A DNA stretch of 54,688 bases, taken from a virus (Duplodnaviria; Heunggongvirae; Uroviricota; Caudoviricetes). The position numbers were made by a program, and so were the translations under genes. The DNA is taken from IMG/VR virus record IMGVR_UViG_2541047774_000008, positions 1 through 54,688 of that record. The stretch is one strand, 5' to 3'. Below the pieces are notes generated by a model. The model saw nothing but the letters and a program-made list of their open reading frames with translations, was not told the origin of the DNA and made no database searches. Positions 19,612-49,287 of this stretch are shown here, one piece after another (the first letter of the stretch is position 1; the number at the start of each line of letters is the position of its first letter).

Positions 19612-20358
19612 TTAAAGCGAACGGATGCCCACGCTGACCAGATGTTCAGACAGATCCAGCTCCGGTTCACCACCATTGACCAGCATCCGGCTCATTGCTG
19701 TAAACATCGCAACAGGGCCGTCGATTTTGGCTTCCAGCGTGGATTTATTCGGGAAGATATTGTCGTTTTTGTCCGGTTTTACCGTAACGTTAGACATCAT
19801 CCAGTTCATGACCGGATGATTGCTGTGATGGAAACGCCCGGCATAGACCAGTGATTCCGTTTCCTTCATGGCCTCTGACAGATTGCGAACCGTCTGCGGA
19901 ACCTCCACCAGCGGTATCCCTTCTTCAGCCAGTGCCAGGCTGAACTGCATCGCGCTCCACGGGTCAAATCCCAGTTCCCTGAGGTTTTCACCACCAATCC
20001 ATTCCAGTAAGTCACTTTTTATCTGAGCATGATCGATAACATCACCATCCGTCAGAATCAGCTTATCCATCTCCGCCCACTTCCGGTAAAGTTCTGCCTG
20101 CTGCCGCGAGCATCGTTCCAGCCGTCCTTCCGGAAGCCAGAATTTAAAATCGGCATGAACATGCCCGTTATCCGTTCGCCAGAGTTTTGCCGCCGCACAG
20201 ATATCAATCTTATGAGCAAGGTCAACGCCGACCCACATGGGATACGTTTTCAGCTCATGTCGTGGGGCAATGTATTCGCACTTCTCCCACTTAATCATGT
20301 CCATCCAGGCAGACTCTGCTGTTACCCACACATTCATGTGTTTGGTAAGAATATTTCA
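19612..20358 (-). pseudogene. 3' fragment of prophage terminase large subunit gene (nuclease domain), separated from its 5' part by the island
   Basis: 241-aa ORF (19612-20337) plus in-frame upstream codons to the stop at 20356-20358 (NILTKHMNVWVTAESAW...) align with the C-terminal half of the island TerL. Confidence 0.8.
20342..20348. repeat. left copy of 7-bp direct repeat TTGGTAA at the island boundary (putative att core)
   Basis: Identical heptamer at 35313-35319; in both copies the embedded ACC codon is in frame in its terL fragment. Confidence 0.6.
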
Positions 20359-28988: not shown

Positions 28989-30404
28989 TTACAGTGGGCG
29001 CACGTCATCACCGTCAATAGCAATAACGCCATCACCTTCCAGCTTGTACAGCCAGCGCCGGAAGTGTTTCATCTCATACCCCAGCTTTTTCATATCATCG
29101 CGCAATAACGGGATAGTGCATTTATCGCTGCGCTGTGTGCGTGACCGGATACAGCCCCATAGTGCGGCGTGATTCTCCGTCTTGTTTCCGGCCTCCTCGA
29201 TGCGCTCCAGTTCAACGGGTGGGCGCGGTTTATCCACAACCACCAGCGACGTGATTAACTCCTTGTCAGCGTCGGTAAAAAGCTCCACCACACGTAAATC
29301 GTATGCAGCCTCTTTCAGTTCCTCCGCGTCCTTCATTTTGGTGCAGGAGATAACCAGGGCTTCACTGTCCGCACCTTCACGGCGAATACGGTATTCAGCA
29401 TCCAGAGATGCACGAAATGCACTGGAACCACGCGCTCCCTTTGTTTCATCCTTGCCGGAATGGTGAACCACCAGCACCGTGGCCCCTGTGCGTCGTTTCA
29501 GTTCGTCACATCCACGGATAAACGCTCCCATATCCCGCGCGTCATTTTCATCATTACCGCCAAAACAACGCGCCAGCGTATCCAGAATAATCATGCGTAC
29601 CGGTTTACCCGTTTCCCGTTCAACCTGGCGGGAAGCGATGACCATTTCATCGACATCAAGCGGGACTGCCGGAAAAATCGGGCGGTTTACCAGGTACAGA
29701 TTTTCCACCCGTTCATCATTAACGATTTCCCATGCCTTGATACGGCGGGGGACACCAATGCCACCTTCACCGACAACATACATCACCGAACCATGCGCCA
29801 CCCTGCGGCCTCCCCAGTGGCGACCCGTGGCAACATGACACGCCCAGGAACACGCGAGGAACGATTTATAGGAACCGCTCGCGCCGTATGTGCTACACAA
29901 TGAATTAGCCGGAATCACGCCCTTAACGACATAATCAAGCTGTGTGTCGTACCCTGCAGATCCAATGCTCATTGGTAGCGTGGTTTTTCGCTGGCTGTAT
30001 TGCTCGTCAGTAAGAATTTCCCCGCGCTCTGCCTGTTCGCGGATCCGTTGCAGGTAGTCGTGCCAGTTCTCCAGCTTCTGGCTGTGCATTCCCTCAGGGT
30101 AATAATTCGCATCCCGTACACCTGCCGCCGCCAGCTTTTGCCCGATGGCGTTAATATTTGACGGCTTGATGTGGCCTGCCTTGTACAGCCGGACACAATA
30201 GCGACCATCGTCGATAATTTTCAGGTCTGCCAGTTCGTCAAGCTGGCTGTCTCCCAGCCATACAGGCGGCACGTTGTCGCCAGCAAGTCGCCCGTCCTGC
30301 TCCTGCCACTGTTTCGCGTGCGCCCAGGCATCACTACCCGCAAAAATAATGACTTCGGTCATTTTGTCGTGCGGCTGTTTTTTTAAGTTCGGTGCCAGTT
30401 TCAT
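28989..30404 (-). CDS. replication protein, primase/helicase-like RecA-fold ATPase
   Basis: 471 aa; Walker A-like YGASGSYKS and Walker B-like MIILDTLARCFGGNDEND; ATG at 30404 overlaps the upstream stop. Confidence 0.75.
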   Translation of the reverse strand: MKLAPNLKKQPHDKMTEVIIFAGSDAWAHAKQWQEQDGRLAGDNVPPVWLGDSQLDELADLKIIDDGRYCVRLYKAGHIKPSNINAIGQKLAAAGVRDANYYPEGMHSQKLENWHDYLQRIREQAERGEILTDEQYSQRKTTLPMSIGSAGYDTQLDYVVKGVIPANSLCSTYGASGSYKSFLACSWACHVATGRHWGGRRVAHGSVMYVVGEGGIGVPRRIKAWEIVNDERVENLYLVNRPIFPAVPLDVDEMVIASRQVERETGKPVRMIILDTLARCFGGNDENDARDMGAFIRGCDELKRRTGATVLVVHHSGKDETKGARGSSAFRASLDAEYRIRREGADSEALVISCTKMKDAEELKEAAYDLRVVELFTDADKELITSLVVVDKPRPPVELERIEEAGNKTENHAALWGCIRSRTQRSDKCTIPLLRDDMKKLGYEMKHFRRWLYKLEGDGVIAIDGDDVRPL

Positions 30405-30700
30405 TTTTTACCCCTGAATGCGTTAATCATGTTTTTCATTTTCTGAATGTTTGCCCGTGCCTTTGCGTTGCTGGTGGGCTGTTTGTGTGGTGTGGCCTGT
30501 TCCAGAGAAAAATCACGCCGGAACTGATAAACAGGCATCACGCAGTCGTAGCTGTACCCATCACGGCGGTAAGTAACGCACCGTCCGGCAATACTTTTAA
30601 TCGTTACCGTGCCGCCGTAGTTATCCCGGAAAATATCGCCGGGGCGGATTTCAGGCCGAGCGGGGCCACTGGCAGTAAAGCCAGAATTTTTCTGTTTCAT
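30401..30700 (-). CDS. hypothetical protein (99 aa)
   Basis: ORF translationally coupled to rep. Confidence 0.45.
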   Translation of the reverse strand: MKQKNSGFTASGPARPEIRPGDIFRDNYGGTVTIKSIAGRCVTYRRDGYSYDCVMPVYQFRRDFSLEQATPHKQPTSNAKARANIQKMKNMINAFRGKK

Positions 30701-30730
30701 GGTTTTATTTTCCTGTCAGTGATTCCGGTT

Positions 30731-30904
30731 TTATTCCGGCGCGAATACAGGCTTCAGAAAAAAAGCCAGAGAACCAACAAACTCATCATTTCTAAGACGG
30801 CATTGTGATTTTACTTTCCCTTTATCCAGGAATATTAAAACGCGCCCTGTGTAATCTGATGGCACATTCAGCACGACAGGTAAGTGCGCTTCATGATTAT
30901 GCAT
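30731..30904 (-). CDS. hypothetical small protein (57 aa)
   Basis: Not in the ORF track (under 60 aa); ATG at 30904 preceded by GAGGGGG; translates MHNHEAHLPVVLNVPSDYTGRVLIFLDKGKVKSQCR... Confidence 0.3.
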   Translation of the reverse strand: MHNHEAHLPVVLNVPSDYTGRVLIFLDKGKVKSQCRLRNDEFVGSLAFFLKPVFAPE

Positions 30905-31365
30905 GGTTCACCCCCTCAGGGAATTTTCTTCTGTAACGCGCCTCTGCCACATATTCAGCATAGTCCGACGCAATAACGAGAATATCGCTGCCTGTTCCTG
31001 AATGCTCAGTGGTTCCAATTAAAAAACATGCGGCCTTTATCAGGTCATTAACAACCAGCAACGCATCACCCGCATCATCCGATACGCCATCAAATTCCTG
31101 TTTCAGGGCATTAAAACGATCATCACGCATAACCCCCCCCCCCATTTTCACAATCAGCAATCAGGATAGCCCTGGCCTCATTCAGTGCCATATCAGCACT
31201 AAATTGCATAACAGCCAGTGAGTGAGGAACGAAAGCCCCGGCATATTCTGTTTCGCTGGTAGCGTGCTTATGCGCCCTGTCTGCGATAACAGAAATATCA
31301 ATCAGCGCATCAATCAGTGTTTTGATGGCTTCGGCGGCTGCGTCCGGACGGGTGTCATTGCACAT
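30897..31365 (-). CDS. hypothetical gene split by a frameshift in an 11-nt homopolymer (ORFs 31123-31365 and 30897-31160)
   Basis: Upstream ORF ends ...ENGGGGYA and downstream begins MGGGVMRDD across C11 (plus strand) at 31133-31143; a 10-nt run would fuse them into about 165 aa. Confidence 0.5.
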
Positions 31366-31723
31366 GGCGCACCCCCTGACGAATACGGGCGGCGAATACC
31401 ATCACGCAGCCAGCCGGGGATTGCTGGCGTGCTTCCTGTTCGCTGGTGGCCTCAATGGTAATCACGCGCGGTTGTGCCGTGCTCAGGGCGATAAAACGCC
31501 AGATAAAATTGTTCTCGCATTTCTGAATAAACAGCGTGTTTTCTTCGCGCCCTTTCCATGTTGCCGAGATATAGCCCATGTCATTGAGCATCTCGCAGGC
31601 ATCCACCAGCGTATCAGCGGCTACGTGTACAGTGTTTTTACCGTCAGCCATGCAATCACGGTGCACCGCCAGGAAGGTGTATATAAATTTAGGGTGAGTT
31701 TGGGTATGCTGTGTTCCAGCCAT
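31355..31723 (-). CDS. hypothetical protein (122 aa)
   Basis: Codon-like 3' portion of the long 31355-32596 ORF; ATG at 31723 with GGAG RBS (MAGTQHTQTHPKFIY...). Confidence 0.5.
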   Translation of the reverse strand: MAGTQHTQTHPKFIYTFLAVHRDCMADGKNTVHVAADTLVDACEMLNDMGYISATWKGREENTLFIQKCENNFIWRFIALSTAQPRVITIEATSEQEARQQSPAGCVMVFAARIRQGVRHVQ

Positions 31724-31798
31724 AATCGTTACTCCAGTTAACGGTTTGGTTAGACGCCCTGCATGTGTTGCGAGCACTGCGGGGCGTCGCTCTTTTAG

Positions 31799-31844
31799 GT
31801 GTATTTCACCTTTGCTTTTTAATTTACTCACTGGTGAAATACAC
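31799..31844. promoter_or_regulatory. perfect 12-bp inverted repeat GTGTATTTCACC-N22-GGTGAAATACAC in the island divergent intergenic region (putative operator)
   Basis: Lies between minus-strand gene 31355-31723 and the plus-strand regulator at 31911. Confidence 0.5.
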
Positions 31845-31910
31845 TTCAAGCCTTTTTTTATCATTTTTTTTGCGTATACTGACATACACCAATTTTTAGG
31901 AGATCCAGAA

Positions 31911-32090
31911 ATGGCAACTGGTGCAAAGAACGCAAAATCACAAATGACAACTGTCAGAATCCCACATGAAGTAATGGATGATATTGAGCAACTTAAAGAA
32001 CCTGGCGAAAGTACCGCTGGTTTTTTAGTTACTGCCGCAAAAGGCGAGATCAAACGCCGCCAGCGTCGCAAGGCCAAAGAGCAGGAATAA
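31911..32090 (+). CDS. small DNA-binding regulator, possibly ribbon-helix-helix (59 aa)
   Basis: ATG at 31911 with AGGAG RBS; MATGAKNAKSQMTTVRIPHEVMDDIEQL... and basic C-terminus; divergent from the replication block. Confidence 0.5.
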   Translation: MATGAKNAKSQMTTVRIPHEVMDDIEQLKEPGESTAGFLVTAAKGEIKRRQRRKAKEQE

Positions 32091-32144
32091 CCATCACCAG
32101 CGCCGTGGTGTGAGGAATCACGGCGGCAACCATAGGAGTAAAAG

Positions 32145-32297
32145 ATGCCAAAACTTAAAAATTGTGCACTCTGTGCGATTGTTCTAATTGTCGCCGCCTT
32201 TATCTTAAAATCATGCTTCGAGAAAAAGAATCTTTGCGGAAGCAATGAAGGCGATATATTACGGCGTGCTTGCGATATAGAGTTGAAAAAAAGTTGA
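32145..32297 (+). CDS. small Cys-rich hydrophobic peptide (50 aa)
   Basis: Not in the ORF track; ATG at 32145 with AGGAG 5 nt upstream; MPKLKNCALCAIVLIVAAFILKSCFEKK...; hairpin with U-run downstream. Confidence 0.35.
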   Translation: MPKLKNCALCAIVLIVAAFILKSCFEKKNLCGSNEGDILRRACDIELKKS

Positions 32298-32740
32298 TCA
32301 TAACCTAACCGCGACAATGCCGTAGTTTCTGTAATTACAGAACAGCTCAGGATTTGCCCACCAGCCGTAAATGTGGCATTGTTGGTTATGCTCATGCGTT
32401 GGGGATAACGTGTAGCTTGTGTCGAGGGGCCACCGTAGCGGGTGGCCTTTGTTTTGCCTGTTATCCTGCAACTATGGTCATTTCGACCACGGTTGATATA
32501 ATCCCCCCGCACAGATTCATTTTTTGCGCAGTAGGTTAATTGTTCGCAAGGGCGCTCCGGTAACGGGGCGCTTTTTGTTTTTACCCACCAGCACAATAAA
32601 AATCTTCATTTTCCATTTTTGTAAAATTTCATGCTTTCCGGACGACTGGTCATATGTCATTTTTTAGCAGAAGATTTTGCCTTGCTGGTGGGTAGCTTCC
32701 CGGTCAACACGATGTACCGTATAATCAACACCGCGTGTGG

Positions 32741-33319
32741 TTACTGAATACGCTCACCAAAGTAAAACTCAGGCTGGTATTCACGTATCAGCCTTTTTTC
32801 TTCTTCCTCCAGCTCACGCTTTTTGCGCTTACATGCCTGTAGCTCCCTCCCCTTCTCACTAGCACTTATCTGGTATTGCTCTTTGCGGCGAGAAAAATCC
32901 TGTAATGCGCCCCACGGGATACCATAAGCCCCCGTTTTTCTGATACCCGGTATCACATTTCTGAATACCCAGTTACTGAAACGATGGGCGAACGTGCCAG
33001 GCGTCGTTGCTTTGCGGCTGCGGGCTATTAGTTTGTAGAAACCTGACTCAGAGATAATGCTCATATTCTGATTTCCTCCGGGGGTGTAAGTTAAATTTAC
33101 TCCCTTTTCATCATCATCAAGCATCTGCAACGCCGTACGCGAATTGGTCAGCTCCAGCGCAGCGCAAACATCCTTTGCAACAAACCACGGATCGCCGTTC
33201 AGATACACCACGCGAACGTTCACACCATCAAAGCGCAGAACGACCAGATCACGAATATCACAGAATTTTTTCACATGACGTGCGTCACCCTTGCCCGTCA
33301 CGGCAATATTTTTATTCAT
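32741..33319 (-). CDS. Bro-N domain protein (antirepressor-like)
   Basis: 192 aa; N-terminal LRFDGVNVRVVYLNGDPWFVAKDVCAALEL matches the Bro-N pattern; coiled-coil C-terminus. Confidence 0.7.
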   Translation of the reverse strand: MNKNIAVTGKGDARHVKKFCDIRDLVVLRFDGVNVRVVYLNGDPWFVAKDVCAALELTNSRTALQMLDDDEKGVNLTYTPGGNQNMSIISESGFYKLIARSRKATTPGTFAHRFSNWVFRNVIPGIRKTGAYGIPWGALQDFSRRKEQYQISASEKGRELQACKRKKRELEEEEKRLIREYQPEFYFGERIQ

Positions 33320-33376
33320 CGCTTTCTACCTCACATACAAAAAACCCCGCATTGCGTGGTGCGGGGTTGTCGGTAA

Positions 33377-33655
33377 TTACTTATTGGCGTTTTTGTATGG
33401 GCTGTTTACTTCCTTTACTCCTGGCGGATGCATAACCCACCAGAGCACATCAGAGAGCAACCAGGAAACAGACACTTTCCCTAAATGAGCACGAGCAGGA
33501 AATGCTCCCTCCTGTTCAAGTACCCAACGTCTGCTTCTTGAAAGCCCGGTACGATTGGCACACTCATGTTCGCGTATACGGCGATCATACGGTTCGCCAT
33601 GTTCTTTCAGAATCTGAATGCGTTCTTCGGGTGTAGGATAAATAAATTTTTGCAT
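33377..33655 (-). CDS. AlpA-like small DNA-binding protein
   Basis: ORF 33377-33685; start placed at the internal Met (MQKFIYPTPE...), coordinate by arithmetic; HTH-like segment; next to a second AlpA-like gene and int. Confidence 0.5.
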   Translation of the reverse strand: MQKFIYPTPEERIQILKEHGEPYDRRIREHECANRTGLSRSRRWVLEQEGAFPARAHLGKVSVSWLLSDVLWWVMHPPGVKEVNSPYKNANK

Positions 33656-33718
33656 AAAAATATCACCTATAAAAAAACCCGCCAAAAGACGGGTTGATTA
33701 TATCTCATTTAATTTAGT

Positions 33719-33952
33719 TCAGGGTTTCCATTCACCCTTTACCCATTCCAGCACCTCAGATAAGCGCCAGACTTTTGTTTGTGGGCCAATACATATTTTT
33801 CGTGGAAATTTTCCTTCCTTTTCAAGTAACGATCTGTGTCTCCTGCCAAGAGCGGTTAACCATGCACATTCATCTTCCTTAATCATCCTGTCGATTGTTT
33901 CATCATTTTCAAGTTCTTCACGCGTAACTATTTGAATCATTACTGTCACCAC
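33719..33952 (-). CDS. alpA: AlpA-family transcriptional regulator
   Basis: 77 aa with AlpA-like HTH (AWLTALGRRHRSLLEKEGKFP); immediately downstream of int. Confidence 0.65.
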   Translation of the reverse strand: MVTVMIQIVTREELENDETIDRMIKEDECAWLTALGRRHRSLLEKEGKFPRKICIGPQTKVWRLSEVLEWVKGEWKP

Positions 33953-35141
33953 TAATTTGCTTATTCAGATAGTCGTACCACCAGTTCATAGCTTCTTTTT
34001 TTCTGTCCATATACTGGCTTCTGTTATAAACCCCGGCAACACCGCCTAATGTGTGCCCAAGCAACTGTTCAACCACATTATGTTCAAAACCATGATCACT
34101 TAGTTTTGTGGCAAACACTCTTCGCATATCATGCGCCGTCCATTTCTCCGAGTGTTTCATCCTTTTCCATGTCTTACCGATAGTTACGCTTGCCGTACAC
34201 TGACGCATATCAAACCCAATCACATTTTCTTTGTTACCTGTTATTTTTTTTAACGTAACTAACCAGTTAAACATGCCATCAGGAATCGGTCTGATTATTT
34301 CCCTGCCATTTTTGCTATGATCAGCGGGAACGCGCCATAATTTCTTATCAAAATCCCACTCTACCCAGGACGACAGTAATACTTCTGACAGTCGACAACC
34401 AAAAACTACCAGGAAACGTAAAATAATTCGGTTTTCATATGATAATTCGTGATTGTCATAATCAGTATTAATACTTCGCCATAAATCTCTGATTTCATCA
34501 TCTGTTAAAACCCTGCTTCTTCGCGCAGACTTTTTTCCCACATCACAGACCTCAAGATCATCAATTTCATGACTAATCGCGTATTTTCTTACCCTACAAA
34601 ATTTAAGCGCCTGTTTTGATATACGCAACAAAGCTCCGGCCTGTACAGGTGCTACTTTTTTTATTTTGTCAAAACACTTGATCCACATAGATATAGAGCA
34701 ATCACTAAGTGGTACATGACCAATCACCGGATAAATATGTTTACCAAAGCACTGCCTGATATGTTCTGCTCCCCTACGCTTATCCATTGCATAATTATCA
34801 AGCCAGTATTCAAGTGCCTCACGAACGGTAACAGGTTGCAAGGTGGCTTCCCGTTCAATTTTTATCTGAATCCGTGGATCTCTGCCCTCCGCAAGCCAGG
34901 TTCGACACTGATCGCGCATCTCTCTCGCTGATTTGAGACTCAGATCAGGATATTTTCCAAGTGTCAGCCAGATGGGCGCGGTTCCCCTTCCCGCCAGTCT
35001 GTAAAAGAAAACAAAACTAACACATCCGTATTTACTGACCCGTACCGAAAGCCCGTTACCATCAGCGATGGTTTCCTGCCTCTCACTCCTGCGCCCAAGC
35101 AGGGAACGAAGTTTTTTATCGCTCAGTTTGTTTAGCGCCAT
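33918..35141 (-). CDS. int: tyrosine integrase, P4-like (island)
   Basis: ORF 33918-35177; first ATG at 35141 (MALNKLSDKKLRSLLG...); C-terminal catalytic region with R, H-x-x-R and Y; sits at the island right end. Confidence 0.85.
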   Translation of the reverse strand: MALNKLSDKKLRSLLGRRSERQETIADGNGLSVRVSKYGCVSFVFFYRLAGRGTAPIWLTLGKYPDLSLKSAREMRDQCRTWLAEGRDPRIQIKIEREATLQPVTVREALEYWLDNYAMDKRRGAEHIRQCFGKHIYPVIGHVPLSDCSISMWIKCFDKIKKVAPVQAGALLRISKQALKFCRVRKYAISHEIDDLEVCDVGKKSARRSRVLTDDEIRDLWRSINTDYDNHELSYENRIILRFLVVFGCRLSEVLLSSWVEWDFDKKLWRVPADHSKNGREIIRPIPDGMFNWLVTLKKITGNKENVIGFDMRQCTASVTIGKTWKRMKHSEKWTAHDMRRVFATKLSDHGFEHNVVEQLLGHTLGGVAGVYNRSQYMDRKKEAMNWWYDYLNKQISGDSNDSNSYA

Positions 35142-35161
35142 GTGATTTATAACCCGTTTTT

Positions 35162-35182
35162 GCAATACACAGTGCAATACAC
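35162..35182. repeat. 21-bp subterminal direct repeat GCAATACACAGTGCAATACAC (putative integrase arm-type site), right end
   Basis: Direct repeat of 20424-20444 with one mismatch; just upstream of the int start. Confidence 0.6.
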
Positions 35183-35312
35183 AAATGATGAAAACAGCCA
35201 GAACCTTCCAGAAAAAACAAAAACGACGAACAAGAAAAAATCTTTTTCTTTCATTTGGTTACTAAAAAAATCAGGACAGGTCGCACTGTTGTTACGGCGT
35301 GATGTTACTTTC

Positions 35313-35319
35313 TTGGTAA
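35313..35319. repeat. right copy of 7-bp direct repeat TTGGTAA at the island boundary (putative att core)
   Basis: Matches 20342-20348; lies within the FFTKK codons of the terL 5' fragment. Confidence 0.6.
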
Positions 35320-36340
35320 AAAAATTCACCCGCGCAGAGACCTGTTCTTTCGCTTTTTTCGCCAGGCGACGCAGATCATCCCAGCGTTTACAGATGCCCA
35401 GGCCGGGATTCGCTTTCTGCCAGACCGTTTCATCAAACGGATCATCTCCCTCATCGAGGGTGTAAATAATCGCAAAGTAGGAGTCGTCTTTTACAGCGCC
35501 CTCCACATCGCTGTTATAGCCACGCAATACCTTGATGGCGTAATCACGCTGCTCGTAACAAATCCCTTCCTTGTTAAACCCTGCCGTGGTGATACCAAAT
35601 AACAGGGACTGCAGGCGGGCACCGGTTGCCGTTTCCAGAACGTCCCACACGTCGCGGGTTTTATGTGCATGCAGCTCATCAATAATGGCGCAGTGGATGT
35701 TCAGACCATCCAGGTTGTTTGCATCCGAGGAAAGCGGTTCAAATTTTGATGCGCTCTGCTCCTGGTAAATCGCCAGCTTGTTGAAATCAAACAACCGCCC
35801 GAGTGTCGACCGGGCTTTTCTGACCATATTTTTGGCGTCTTCAAACACAATTCTGGCCTGGTCACGCGTGGTGGCGGCTGAATACACCTCAGCACCGCCT
35901 TCACCATCTGCCCCCGTCATATACAGGCCGATACCCGATGACAGAGTTGATTTTGCGTTTTTACGGGCGACTTCGTTGTACGCCGTCCGGAACCGGCGCA
36001 CCATCACCGGACGTCCGCTGCCATCGCTGCGCATGACAACTTCCCCGGTCTCTTCATTCACCAGCGGAATGACAAAACCAAAAATATTAATGAGGATAAA
36101 TACATGCCAGTCCATCAGTTCAATGGGCTGGCCTGCCAGCGCCCCTTTTACATGAGGCACAAATTTGTAGAAATTCAGGATGTGCTGCGCACGGGGTTCA
36201 CTGAAATAAATCCCCCGCTCTTCGCCGTACTTCAGATCATCAAGAAAACGCTGGCAGGCCAAGCGGACAAATTCGCCAGCAACAATTTCTCCTGCGACAA
36301 CACGTTCGGCGTAGCGGATCCCGTCAGCCACTTTTGCCAT
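35313..36340 (-). pseudogene. 5' fragment of prophage terminase large subunit gene (ATPase domain), separated from its 3' part by the island
   Basis: ORF 35147-36340; Walker A-like EVARKNAKST and Walker B-like AIIDELHAH; similarity to the island TerL stops at ...ARVNFFTKK, after which the frame runs into island DNA. Confidence 0.8.
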
Positions 36341-40025: not shown

Positions 40026-40317
40026 AGCCTCACCTCCGCAAATAACGGATGGCGTAGTTTTACACTGAGAAATGAAAGGGATTTGAAAAGAAAAAACCGC
40101 AAAAGCGGGCGAAACGATATATACAGAAAGGAAAGCACTCTATCCAACAAACCACCCACAGTTAATCGGAATAAAAGCAGAGTGCTTATGAATGATCGCC
40201 TGCCCGAAGGTTAGTATTTCTGCACAGCAATTTTGCAAAAAAAGGCGATCATTCATAACTTAAACGTCTTTCAGTCACTCCGGGATTTCCCATCATCGCA
40301 GACTGAAAGACTCTAAC

Positions 40318-40392
<75 letters not shown>

Positions 40393-40395
40393 ATA

Positions 40396-40471
<76 letters not shown>

Positions 40472-40473
40472 AC

Positions 40474-40550
40474 TGGACCGCCACCGGGGACTCGAACCTC
40501 GCACACTCAACTTAAAGGGTTGACGCTCTTTCCTGATGAGCTAGTGGCGG
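40474..40550 (-). tRNA. atypical tRNA-like gene (anticodon loop CCUUUAA, possibly Lys-UUU-like)
   Basis: 77 nt; acceptor CCGCCAC/GTGGCGG, D-stem GCTC/GAGC, T-loop TTCGAGT, CCA encoded; C at position 33 and one A-C mismatch in the T-stem. Confidence 0.5.
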
Positions 40551-40551
40551 C

Positions 40552-40627
40552 TGGTGGCCCTTGCTGGATTTGAACCAGCGACCTGGCGATTATGAGTCGC
40601 TCGCTCTCACCACTGAGCTAAAGGGCC
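40552..40627 (-). tRNA. tRNA with CAU anticodon (Ile2/Met type)
   Basis: 76-nt cloverleaf: acceptor GGCCCTT/AAGGGCC, anticodon loop CUCAUAA, T-loop TTCAAAT, CCA encoded. Confidence 0.75.
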
Positions 40628-44041: not shown

Positions 44042-44197
44042 TTACTCCTCAGGTTCGTAAGCTGTGAAGACAGCGACCTCCGTCTGGCCAGTTCGGATTC
44101 GTACCTCGCAGAGGTCTTTCCTCGTTACCAGTGCCGTCACAATGACGGTTAAACAGATGACGATCAGGGCGATTAACATCGCCTTTTGCTGCTTCAT
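44042..44197 (-). CDS. hokD: Hok/Gef-family type I toxin
   Basis: ORF 44042-44254; ATG at 44197 gives 51 aa MKQQKAMLIALIVICLTVIVTALVTRKDLCEVRIRTGQTEVAVFTAYEPEE, preceded by AGGAG. Confidence 0.8.
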   Translation of the reverse strand: MKQQKAMLIALIVICLTVIVTALVTRKDLCEVRIRTGQTEVAVFTAYEPEE

Positions 44198-44434
44198 AGC
44201 CTGCTTCTCCTTGCCTTTCGGCACGTAAGAGGCTAACCTAGATTTGCCGTTCATAGATTGAGCCTCAGATTAATGTTAAGCGTCTTGCCGGACGCGTAAT
44301 GTTAACTGGGGCTTTTCTCTATCTGCCTTTCAGTGTTCATGCCTGAGACAGATAGCCTCAAGCACCCGCAGCCATTCTACTTAACTCACGTCACCTCGCC
44401 AATATGAAATCAATCAGAAAGGTGATCCATAAAA

Positions 44435-49229: not shown

Positions 49230-49287
49230 TTTCTGGTGACGTTTGGCGGTATCAGTTTTACTCCGTGACTGCTCTGCCGCCCTTTTT
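49230..49287 (+). ncRNA. dicF: DicF small RNA
   Basis: Sequence TTTCTGGTGACGTTTGGCGGTATCAGTTTTACTCCGTGACTGCTCTGCCGCCCTTTTT matches DicF as I recall it, with a 3' GC stem and U-run, between ydfC and dicB. Confidence 0.75.

Follow-up and report, generated by a model that had tools for sequence, protein, structure and literature searches.

The 54,688-nt window analyzed here is an Escherichia coli lambdoid prophage with DicF, sok RNA, a tRNA array, and lysis and terminase genes, and its large-terminase gene is interrupted by a 14.7-kb satellite island. The replication/capsid operon of this island is probably silenced by a switch consisting of a 59-aa ribbon-helix-helix (RHH) repressor of the YlcI type and three operators. 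The switch is located in a divergent region of 187 bp between the ylcI-like gene and the Icd-like gene; the latter starts at 31723 on the minus strand, which makes 31724 the first intergenic base, and it is the divergent neighbor of ylcI in most related loci. An earlier note on this DNA, made from the sequence alone, had suggested at this place either an island repressor/operator pair or a small toxin–antitoxin-like module. Every feature it listed is present where it was placed, and the former suggestion is well supported by comparative evidence. The genes and operators of the switch are as follows:

31355–31723, minus strand: Icd-like gene, first gene of the island's leftward replication/capsid operon (NCBIfam NF033153, 78 bits)
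31799–31809: operator O1, GTGTATTTCAC, just past the predicted leftward start (about +5 to +16)
31834–31844: operator O2, GTGAAATACAC, within the predicted leftward promoter (in its spacer); its position relative to the ylcI ATG is −77 in every lineage
31879–31889: operator O3, CTGACATACAC, 9/11 identical to O2, overlapping the −10 and the start site of ylcI; predicted autoregulatory site
31911–32090, plus strand: ylcI-like gene, encoding a 59-aa predicted RHH DNA-binding protein, the proposed island repressor

The region features a perfect 12-bp inverted repeat, as the earlier note had it: the arms GTGTATTTCACC (31799–31810) and GGTGAAATACAC (31833–31844) are exact complements with 22 nt between them and are the only two exact copies of the arm in the window. 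Only one further spaced inverted repeat (exact seed of at least 12 nt, within 60 nt) occurs in the 54.7 kb, and the chance expectation for such repeats is approximately 0.1–0.2 per window by our own estimate. The arms are thus real; the working unit, however, is not the palindrome but an 11-bp GTG-N5-CAC site that occurs three times. This was judged from 77 loci encoding YlcI relatives in Enterobacterales, taken from one genome per species and anchored on the ylcI start codon. Nearly all of them carry GTG-N5-CAC at the fixed position −77 and again at −99 to −113, and the 130 nt before ylcI hold the motif at 10.5 per kb, compared with 0.42 per kb elsewhere in these loci. Where at least two sites are present, their central 5 bp agree within one mismatch (46/47 loci), and this core varies by lineage with approximately 17 classes. 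Most classes have the upstream copies as direct repeats; an inverted arrangement is confined to three classes, that of the window among them. The site spacing is 22–26, 35, or 45 bp. The third and weaker copy, O3, starts inside the conserved −10 of ylcI (TATACT|G...) and reads cTG-N5-CAC; its core covaries with those of O1 and O2, and it is 10/11 identical to them in most classes. The 12-bp palindrome is two operator copies that happen to face each other and not a hairpin, which is no functional unit here because the two copies are direct repeats in many lineages. A second, longer subfamily of the protein ("IRFP...NFSAWV"; K-12 YlcI and the allele of locus L002) is, where it occurs in islands, flanked by TGT-N4-ACA sites instead.

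The 59-aa protein belongs to the YlcI/YnfO family (NCBIfam NF041551; 64 bits at a cut-off of 30, with residues 9–50 on profile positions 1–42), and its RefSeq homologues bear the same family name. The ATG of its gene is preceded by AGGAG at 8 nt. The protein also matches PHROG 949, a family of unknown function, and no Pfam model, including DUF3950 (PF13132) at E up to 1 and any RHH model; the 65-aa L002 allele does match PF13132. Its approximately 180 homologue clusters are all from Enterobacterales, and tblastn against 50,697 phage genomes yields no match. The earlier note had called the protein DNA-binding-like, and structure prediction bears this out by giving an RHH fold. The AlphaFold2 monomer model (32 homologues; predicted local distance difference test score of 88) features an extended segment at residues 8–18, a helix at 19–28, and a long helix at 35–58, that is, the strand–helix–helix topology of approximately 45 residues of RHH proteins. 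Structural comparison reveals similarity to solved RHH proteins, and the neighbors include the antitoxins ParD, HicB, TacA, and MazE9. A profile search of PDB sequences found no RHH protein, a Foldseek search was uninformative, and no helix-turn-helix family is matched. Based on the model, a ribbon-helix-helix (Arc/MetJ/CopG) fold is predicted, which presumably acts as a dimer. In the family alignment, N7, K9, S10, R16, and an EIKRRQR tail are invariant, and residues 11–15 in the predicted DNA-reading strand are the most variable.

The closest named relatives are YlcI (DLP12) and YnfO (Qin) of E. coli K-12 (DUF3950, NF041551), which share the N-terminal MATGxKNxKS arm, the strand, the R-x-P motif, and the helix. 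The K-12 copies differ in belonging to the longer "IRFP...NFSAWV" subfamily and in lying beside the cohesive-end site cos, divergent from the small terminase gene. In K-12 (580251–580445, locus L091), ylcI adjoins the DLP12 cos site and is transcribed away from nohD, so that the context of the family's prophage members is one of packaging and not of regulation.

Promoters on both sides of the region were predicted from conservation, with their geometry scored in 44 unique loci; a simple consensus scan called neither of them. The predicted elements are:

31844–31849, minus strand: leftward −35, TTGAAG, which shares one base with O2; TTGA is invariant (44/44)
31821–31826, minus strand: −10 TAAATT of the leftward promoter; TAnnnT at 16–18 nt spacing in 36/44
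31875–31880, plus strand: −10 TATACT of the ylcI promoter; TATACT at −36 to −31 in 37/44

The leftward −35 hexamer is generally TTGACG, and the window has TTGAAG (31849 down to 31844). With the −35 beside O2 and the −10 at 16–18 nt, O2 fills the spacer of the leftward promoter. O1 overlaps the leftward −10 in classes with a site spacing of 22–26 bp; at the 35-bp spacing of the window it is found at about +5 to +16. Transcription would start at approximately 31814 leftwards and 31887 rightwards. As far as the sequences tell, this geometry fits repression of the leftward operon together with autoregulation of ylcI. In the proposed switch, the 59-aa RHH protein would bind the 11-bp GTG-N5-CAC site in its three copies within the 187-bp divergent region. 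Protein bound to O1 and O2 would block the conserved sigma-70 promoter of the leftward operon—Icd-like gene, primase, single-stranded-DNA-binding protein (SSB), and capsid genes—and protein bound to O3 would limit its own synthesis, since this site covers the −10 and the start of the ylcI promoter. Repression of the replication/packaging operon would keep the satellite island quiescent.

It is unlikely that the RHH protein acts on the same sites mainly as an activator, either of ylcI or of the leftward operon, or as a dual regulator like lambda CI. The −35 of ylcI is of variable quality, poor in the lineage of the window and with a match to TTGACA at only 2–3/6 positions in most loci, and O2 is centered approximately 48 bp upstream of the predicted ylcI start, in an activator-like position. 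However, with O2 in the leftward spacer and O1 over the −10 or just past the start, both would occlude RNA polymerase, and O3 covers part of the −10 from which the protein itself is expressed. If binding at O2 did stimulate ylcI, this would in any case be compatible with repression of the leftward operon.

The question of which protein reads the sites is addressed by the co-variation of the operator core with the predicted β-strand of YlcI. Eight pairs of strand residues 11–16 and central 5 bp are:

QMTTVR: core AAATA
KKLEAR: core TCAGC
LQVSVR: core AACAC
QALKAR: core TGGCC
QQLNAR: core AATCG
QSVTAR: core TCTTA
QQIVSR: core AATGC
QTVAAR: core TTGAA

Operator core and strand class are concordant in 973 of 990 locus pairs; the remaining 17 involve classes that are nearly identical. 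The operator class is followed less well by the C-terminal half of YlcI (58 discordant pairs), and the LQVSVR and QMTTVR classes share the same C-terminus at different operators. Strand residues 11–16 are thus candidates for reading the central 5 bp, with N7, K9, S10, and R16 matching the invariant GTG/CAC flanks. Replacement of residues 11–15, QMTTV, by KKLEA or LQVSV is predicted to shift the site preference to GTGTCAGCCAC or GTGAACACCAC, respectively. Repeated short operator subsites that depend on strand residues are a trait of RHH proteins, and sequence comparison points to them indirectly. Genetic linkage contributes to the co-variation of operator and strand and limits it as evidence.

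The neighbors of YlcI do not follow the operators. Among the E. coli islands of the window, L001, and L080, which have three operator classes, the regulators AlpA1 and AlpA2 are identical in 72/73, 92/92, 73/73, and 91/92 positions, and the Bro protein is 191/192 identical between the window and L080 despite their different operator classes. L001 and L090 have nearly identical Icd-like proteins and different operators. AlpA, Bro, and the Icd-like protein are hence conserved across different operators, and therefore the sites track YlcI and no other neighbor. For this reason, binding of the repeats by another factor—AlpA, the Icd-like protein, Bro, or a host protein—with a different role for the 59-aa protein is quite improbable, even if PHROGs label Icd-like families as "transcriptional repressor" and AlpA is the known regulator of these islands (PMC6092414). 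Moreover, the operator core follows YlcI residues 11–16, and a host factor is unable to explain approximately 17 core variants.

Alignment of the three E. coli islands reveals a swapped block that reaches from inside the Icd-like gene via the leader and the operators to approximately codon 45 of ylcI; outside this block, the islands are identical or nearly so. The N-terminal part of the Icd-like gene through ylcI codons 1–45 would thus be exchanged as an immunity cassette between otherwise identical islands. In L002 (5890–5945), the leftover 3' end of another ylcI allele (...REVEYRQRRKASES) is located downstream of the resident 65-aa allele. This remnant is a scar left by cassette replacement, and the mosaic pattern is as in phage immunity regions.

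The island belongs to the capsid-forming type of phage-inducible chromosomal islands (PICIs; bioRxiv 10.1101/2022.09.08.507074) and lies within the large-terminase gene of its helper prophage, in the arrangement that PMC10111431 calls "helper-embedded". The interrupted helper gene has its N-terminal part at 35147–36340 (minus strand) and picks up again with its C-terminal part near 20337. The ends of the island are marked by one repeat:

20424–20434 and 35162–35172: 11-bp direct repeat GCAATACACAG at both island ends, which places the island at about 20435–35172

This repeat is likely the core of the attachment site. A fourth operator had been considered near the integrase start (GTGCAATACAC at 35172) and was rejected, as it is unchanged in L001 and L080 despite their other operator classes and is part of the repeat GCAATACACAG. 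In leftward order, the island consists of the integrase (33918–35177), two AlpA-type regulators (33719–33952 and 33377–33685), the Bro-N protein (32741–33319), the switch region, the Icd-like gene, DUF4222, a primase-like gene, SSB, and a full capsid/portal/protease/terminase set. E. coli OkiPb01701 (L001) has an annotated arrangement that is nearly the same. L002 carries a second, different island, inserted in a gpA terminase gene of the lambda type. The right side of ylcI is occupied by the integrase in 45/77 loci and by AlpA in 31/77, and in many loci alpA lies directly to the right of ylcI and is convergent with it.

Further elements of the window lie apart from the switch. The sok antitoxin RNA (44192–44367, 112 bits) and the DicF RNA (49231–49282, 77 bits) both belong to the portion of the window that is helper prophage. 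An inverted repeat of 16 nt without mismatch, TTATGAATGATCGCCT and AGGCGATCATTCATAA separated by 41 nt (40186–40258), adjoins the prophage tRNA array at 40318–40627. An AT-rich palindrome with a (TA)n run at 20602–20635, near the left end of the island and next to the terminase genes that belong to the island itself, may serve in packaging or replication.

Induction of these islands needs AlpA, which activates leftward transcription (PMC6092414; 10.1101/2022.09.08.507074), and a helper-embedded island as a whole has the same orientation as the late operon of its helper (PMC10111431). The repressor would most likely be overcome by leftward transcription from the alpA promoter or by Q-antiterminated read-through of helper late transcription. 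Such transcripts would run antisense over ylcI into the operon, bypassing and probably silencing the repressor. One element lies along this route:

33343–33368, minus strand: hairpin with a T-run, similar to an intrinsic terminator, in the gap that separates the second alpA-type gene from the Bro-N gene

It is the only minus-strand terminator-like site (33368–33343) between alpA and the Icd-like gene, and leftward read-through into Bro and beyond may therefore need antitermination. A protein antirepressor may provide an alternative route of release. Bro-N as a dedicated antirepressor partner is a weakened candidate, given that tblastn with the Bro of the window finds it in only 8/77 loci.

Downstream of ylcI, the rightward transcript is predicted to carry a second gene and to end at a terminator:

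32101–32125, plus strand: intercistronic hairpin with a 9-bp stem, −15.9 kcal/mol, z-score −1.8; significance doubtful
32145–32297, plus strand: 50-aa ORF with a signal-anchor or lipoprotein-like N-terminus and three conserved Cys; optional cargo of the repressor operon
32425–32458, plus strand: intrinsic terminator of the ylcI–peptide transcript, with a T-run behind a 10-bp stem; conserved in L002, L090, and L082

The hairpin after the 59-aa ORF that the earlier note had pointed out is present at approximately 32101–32125; it is neither significant by its z-score of −1.8 nor conserved in L002 or L090. The same note had described the 50-aa ORF as hydrophobic, with five Cys and a strong ribosome-binding site. 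AGGAG is indeed found 6 nt upstream, the N-terminal half is hydrophobic, and five Cys are present, of which only three are kept in homologues. The peptide is rare: two matching clusters occur among 5.8 billion proteins and five representatives among 1.8 billion, and a scan of the genome collection yields nothing with the peptide alone as query and homologues in metagenomic and viral contigs with an alignment. The homologues confirmed by tblastn have 47–53 aa at identities down to 55%, with the frame open in all and an in-frame indel of three codons. All feature a basic and hydrophobic N-terminus ending in an invariant Ser-Cys, plus two more invariant Cys. The ratio of nonsynonymous to synonymous substitution rates is 0.14–0.24 within the 47-aa clade and 0.4–1.8 between clades. 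Compared by eye with the published pattern, the lipobox region reads L-K-S-C in the window, with a noncanonical K at −2, the canonical L-I-S-C in P0123, and I-R-S-C in P0126.

Wherever it occurs, the peptide gene immediately follows an RHH gene, and this RHH gene diverges from an Icd-like gene. Five different RHH alleles fill this place; one of them is from a different RHH family and has its stop codon 3 nt before the peptide start. The peptide gene is missing downstream of ylcI in 74/77 loci, and the whole stretch is present in 17 of 5,426 E. coli genomes. By these sequence criteria, the ORF is taken to be a real, rare small exported or membrane protein—an optional cargo and not an obligate partner—which would be cotranscribed with ylcI and expressed in the quiescent state. 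The position downstream of a repressor often holds prophage exclusion or conversion genes, as in cI-rexAB of lambda, and one guess is that the 50-aa protein acts in exclusion or in the cell envelope.

The toxin–antitoxin-like module suggested by the earlier note, with the 59-aa protein as autoregulating RHH antitoxin and the peptide as small membrane toxin, is very improbable. In its favor are the RHH antitoxins among the structural neighbors, the constant position of the peptide after the RHH gene where it is present, and a size and layout reminiscent of Hok-type peptides. However, the 50-aa ORF is not supported as a toxin–antitoxin partner because it is absent from 74/77 loci and has no toxin-family match: Pfam, NCBIfam, PHROGs, and PADLOC give no toxin, Hok/Gef, or defense family (no Hok_Gef at E up to 1). 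It travels as interchangeable cargo behind five RHH alleles, one of them belonging to another RHH family; an additional domain for toxin binding is absent from the RHH protein, and the operators govern a divergent 10-kb operon and not just the pair. No sok/hok RNA is found at the peptide locus; the sok match of the window lies in the helper prophage.

A small-RNA-like unit is found farther downstream (32475–32583, plus strand), with a promoter TGGTCA-16 nt-TG-n-TATAAT, a transcript of approximately 75 nt predicted to start near 32509, and a strong terminator at 32548–32575 (fold z = −3.1). The stretch 32354–32583 matches 704 of 5,426 E. coli genomes, where it is unannotated, and the unit has no Rfam match. 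It also occurs between ylcI and an alpA-like gene in a tRNA-Pro island (L093) and is convergent with leftward alpA/bro transcription.

The leftward transcript would begin with a structured leader (approximately 31814 down to 31724), in which 14 of 18 base pairs exhibit compensatory double changes among 45 diverse loci. Two hairpins are formed:

31753–31788, minus strand: leader hairpin 1, with a 10-bp outer and a 3-bp inner GUG/CAC stem; 13 pairs, 10 compensatory
31727–31743, minus strand: leader hairpin 2, with 5 pairs, 4 compensatory; 94.7% paired in 45 loci; also present in the minimum-free-energy fold

The loop of hairpin 2 displays the Shine–Dalgarno sequence GGAG of the Icd-like gene (31732–31735). 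Pairing is found in 87.8% of cells compared with 30–42% when the partners are slid, the observed covariation is matched by no shuffle, and the single-sequence fold of the whole leader agrees (z = −4.3). No match to Rfam C4/isrK is found in 31300–33400 at E up to 10, and other known RNA families give only sub-threshold chance matches. A conserved single-stranded UCUAACCACAA lies between the two leader hairpins. The motif CCTAACCGCGACAATGCCGTAGTT (32300–32325 in the window) follows right after the stop codon of the peptide in all peptide loci, including L082, L090, and L002; its similarity to the single-stranded linker CTAACCACAA of the leader is in the same sense and not that of a complement, and the two could be a shared RNA-binding site.

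That the inverted repeat itself works by folding into a nucleic-acid hairpin, be it as a terminator, an RNA structure, or a cruciform, is hardly credible: the 54-nt stretch folds as RNA at −18.2 kcal/mol (z = −6.6), but the direct repeats of most lineages cannot pair, so that the comparative data already contradict it, the predicted starts at approximately 31814 and 31887 put the arms on no common promoter-proximal transcript, and no T-run follows the repeat.

In the literature searched, no paper ties YlcI/DUF3950 to regulation, and the family (ylcI, ynfO) has no published function. Papers on Gram-negative PICIs give the family merely as an annotation or do not mention it, and according to one paper on Gram-negative satellites, a global repressor had not been identified. 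A conserved repressor/operator cassette that swaps specificity would fill this gap and explain heteroimmune variants of otherwise identical islands. If true, it would provide the first function for an E. coli K-12 y-gene family (ylcI, ynfO; DUF3950), and the approximately 17 natural strand/operator pairs would be a ready-made recognition code for studying how RHH proteins read DNA. Only tentatively, and with more doubt than trust, can the switch be extended to YlcI/YnfO proteins as the missing quiescence repressors of a large Gram-negative satellite class, induced by convergent leftward transcription without an antirepressor and with the covarying leader and the conserved antisense small-RNA-like unit as added layers. 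In this extension, AlpA-activated or Q-antiterminated transcription would silence the repressor by collision or antisense and itself enter the replication/capsid operon.

The immI region of phage P22 with Arc/Mnt resembles the YlcI switch in featuring a tiny RHH repressor, short operators over back-to-back divergent promoters, and autoregulation combined with repression of a divergent operon that decides the fate of the element. It differs in that Arc binds one 21-bp operator as a tetramer, compared with three 11-bp GTG-N5-CAC sites 22–45 bp apart in the YlcI systems. There is no detectable sequence similarity, and the operon controlled here is that for satellite replication and capsids and not an antirepressor operon. 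The Stl/Rpr repressors of Gram-positive PICIs, the Staphylococcus aureus pathogenicity islands (SaPIs; PMC6092414), resemble the YlcI switch in position and proposed role: the repressor gene and the replication/packaging operon of the satellite are transcribed away from each other, the binding sites lie between the two, and the island is kept quiescent. Stl, however, is a larger helix-turn-helix protein, unrelated in sequence and fold, and is inactivated by binding of a helper-phage protein, whereas for the window island no antirepressor partner is known and AlpA-dependent activation coexists with the switch. In the immI region of P1 (c4 RNA-icd-ant) and the CI RNA immunity of P4 (PMC10111431), an Icd-like gene likewise heads the operon behind a structured leader, and the immunity elements are located in the same "Bro zone" of Gram-negative islands. 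In these systems, an antisense or processed RNA is the immunity factor, whereas the specificity element proposed here is a pair of protein and operator. The logic of the switch is thus known from P22 Arc/Mnt and SaPI Stl, without homology to either, and it is a useful lead for the satellite field.
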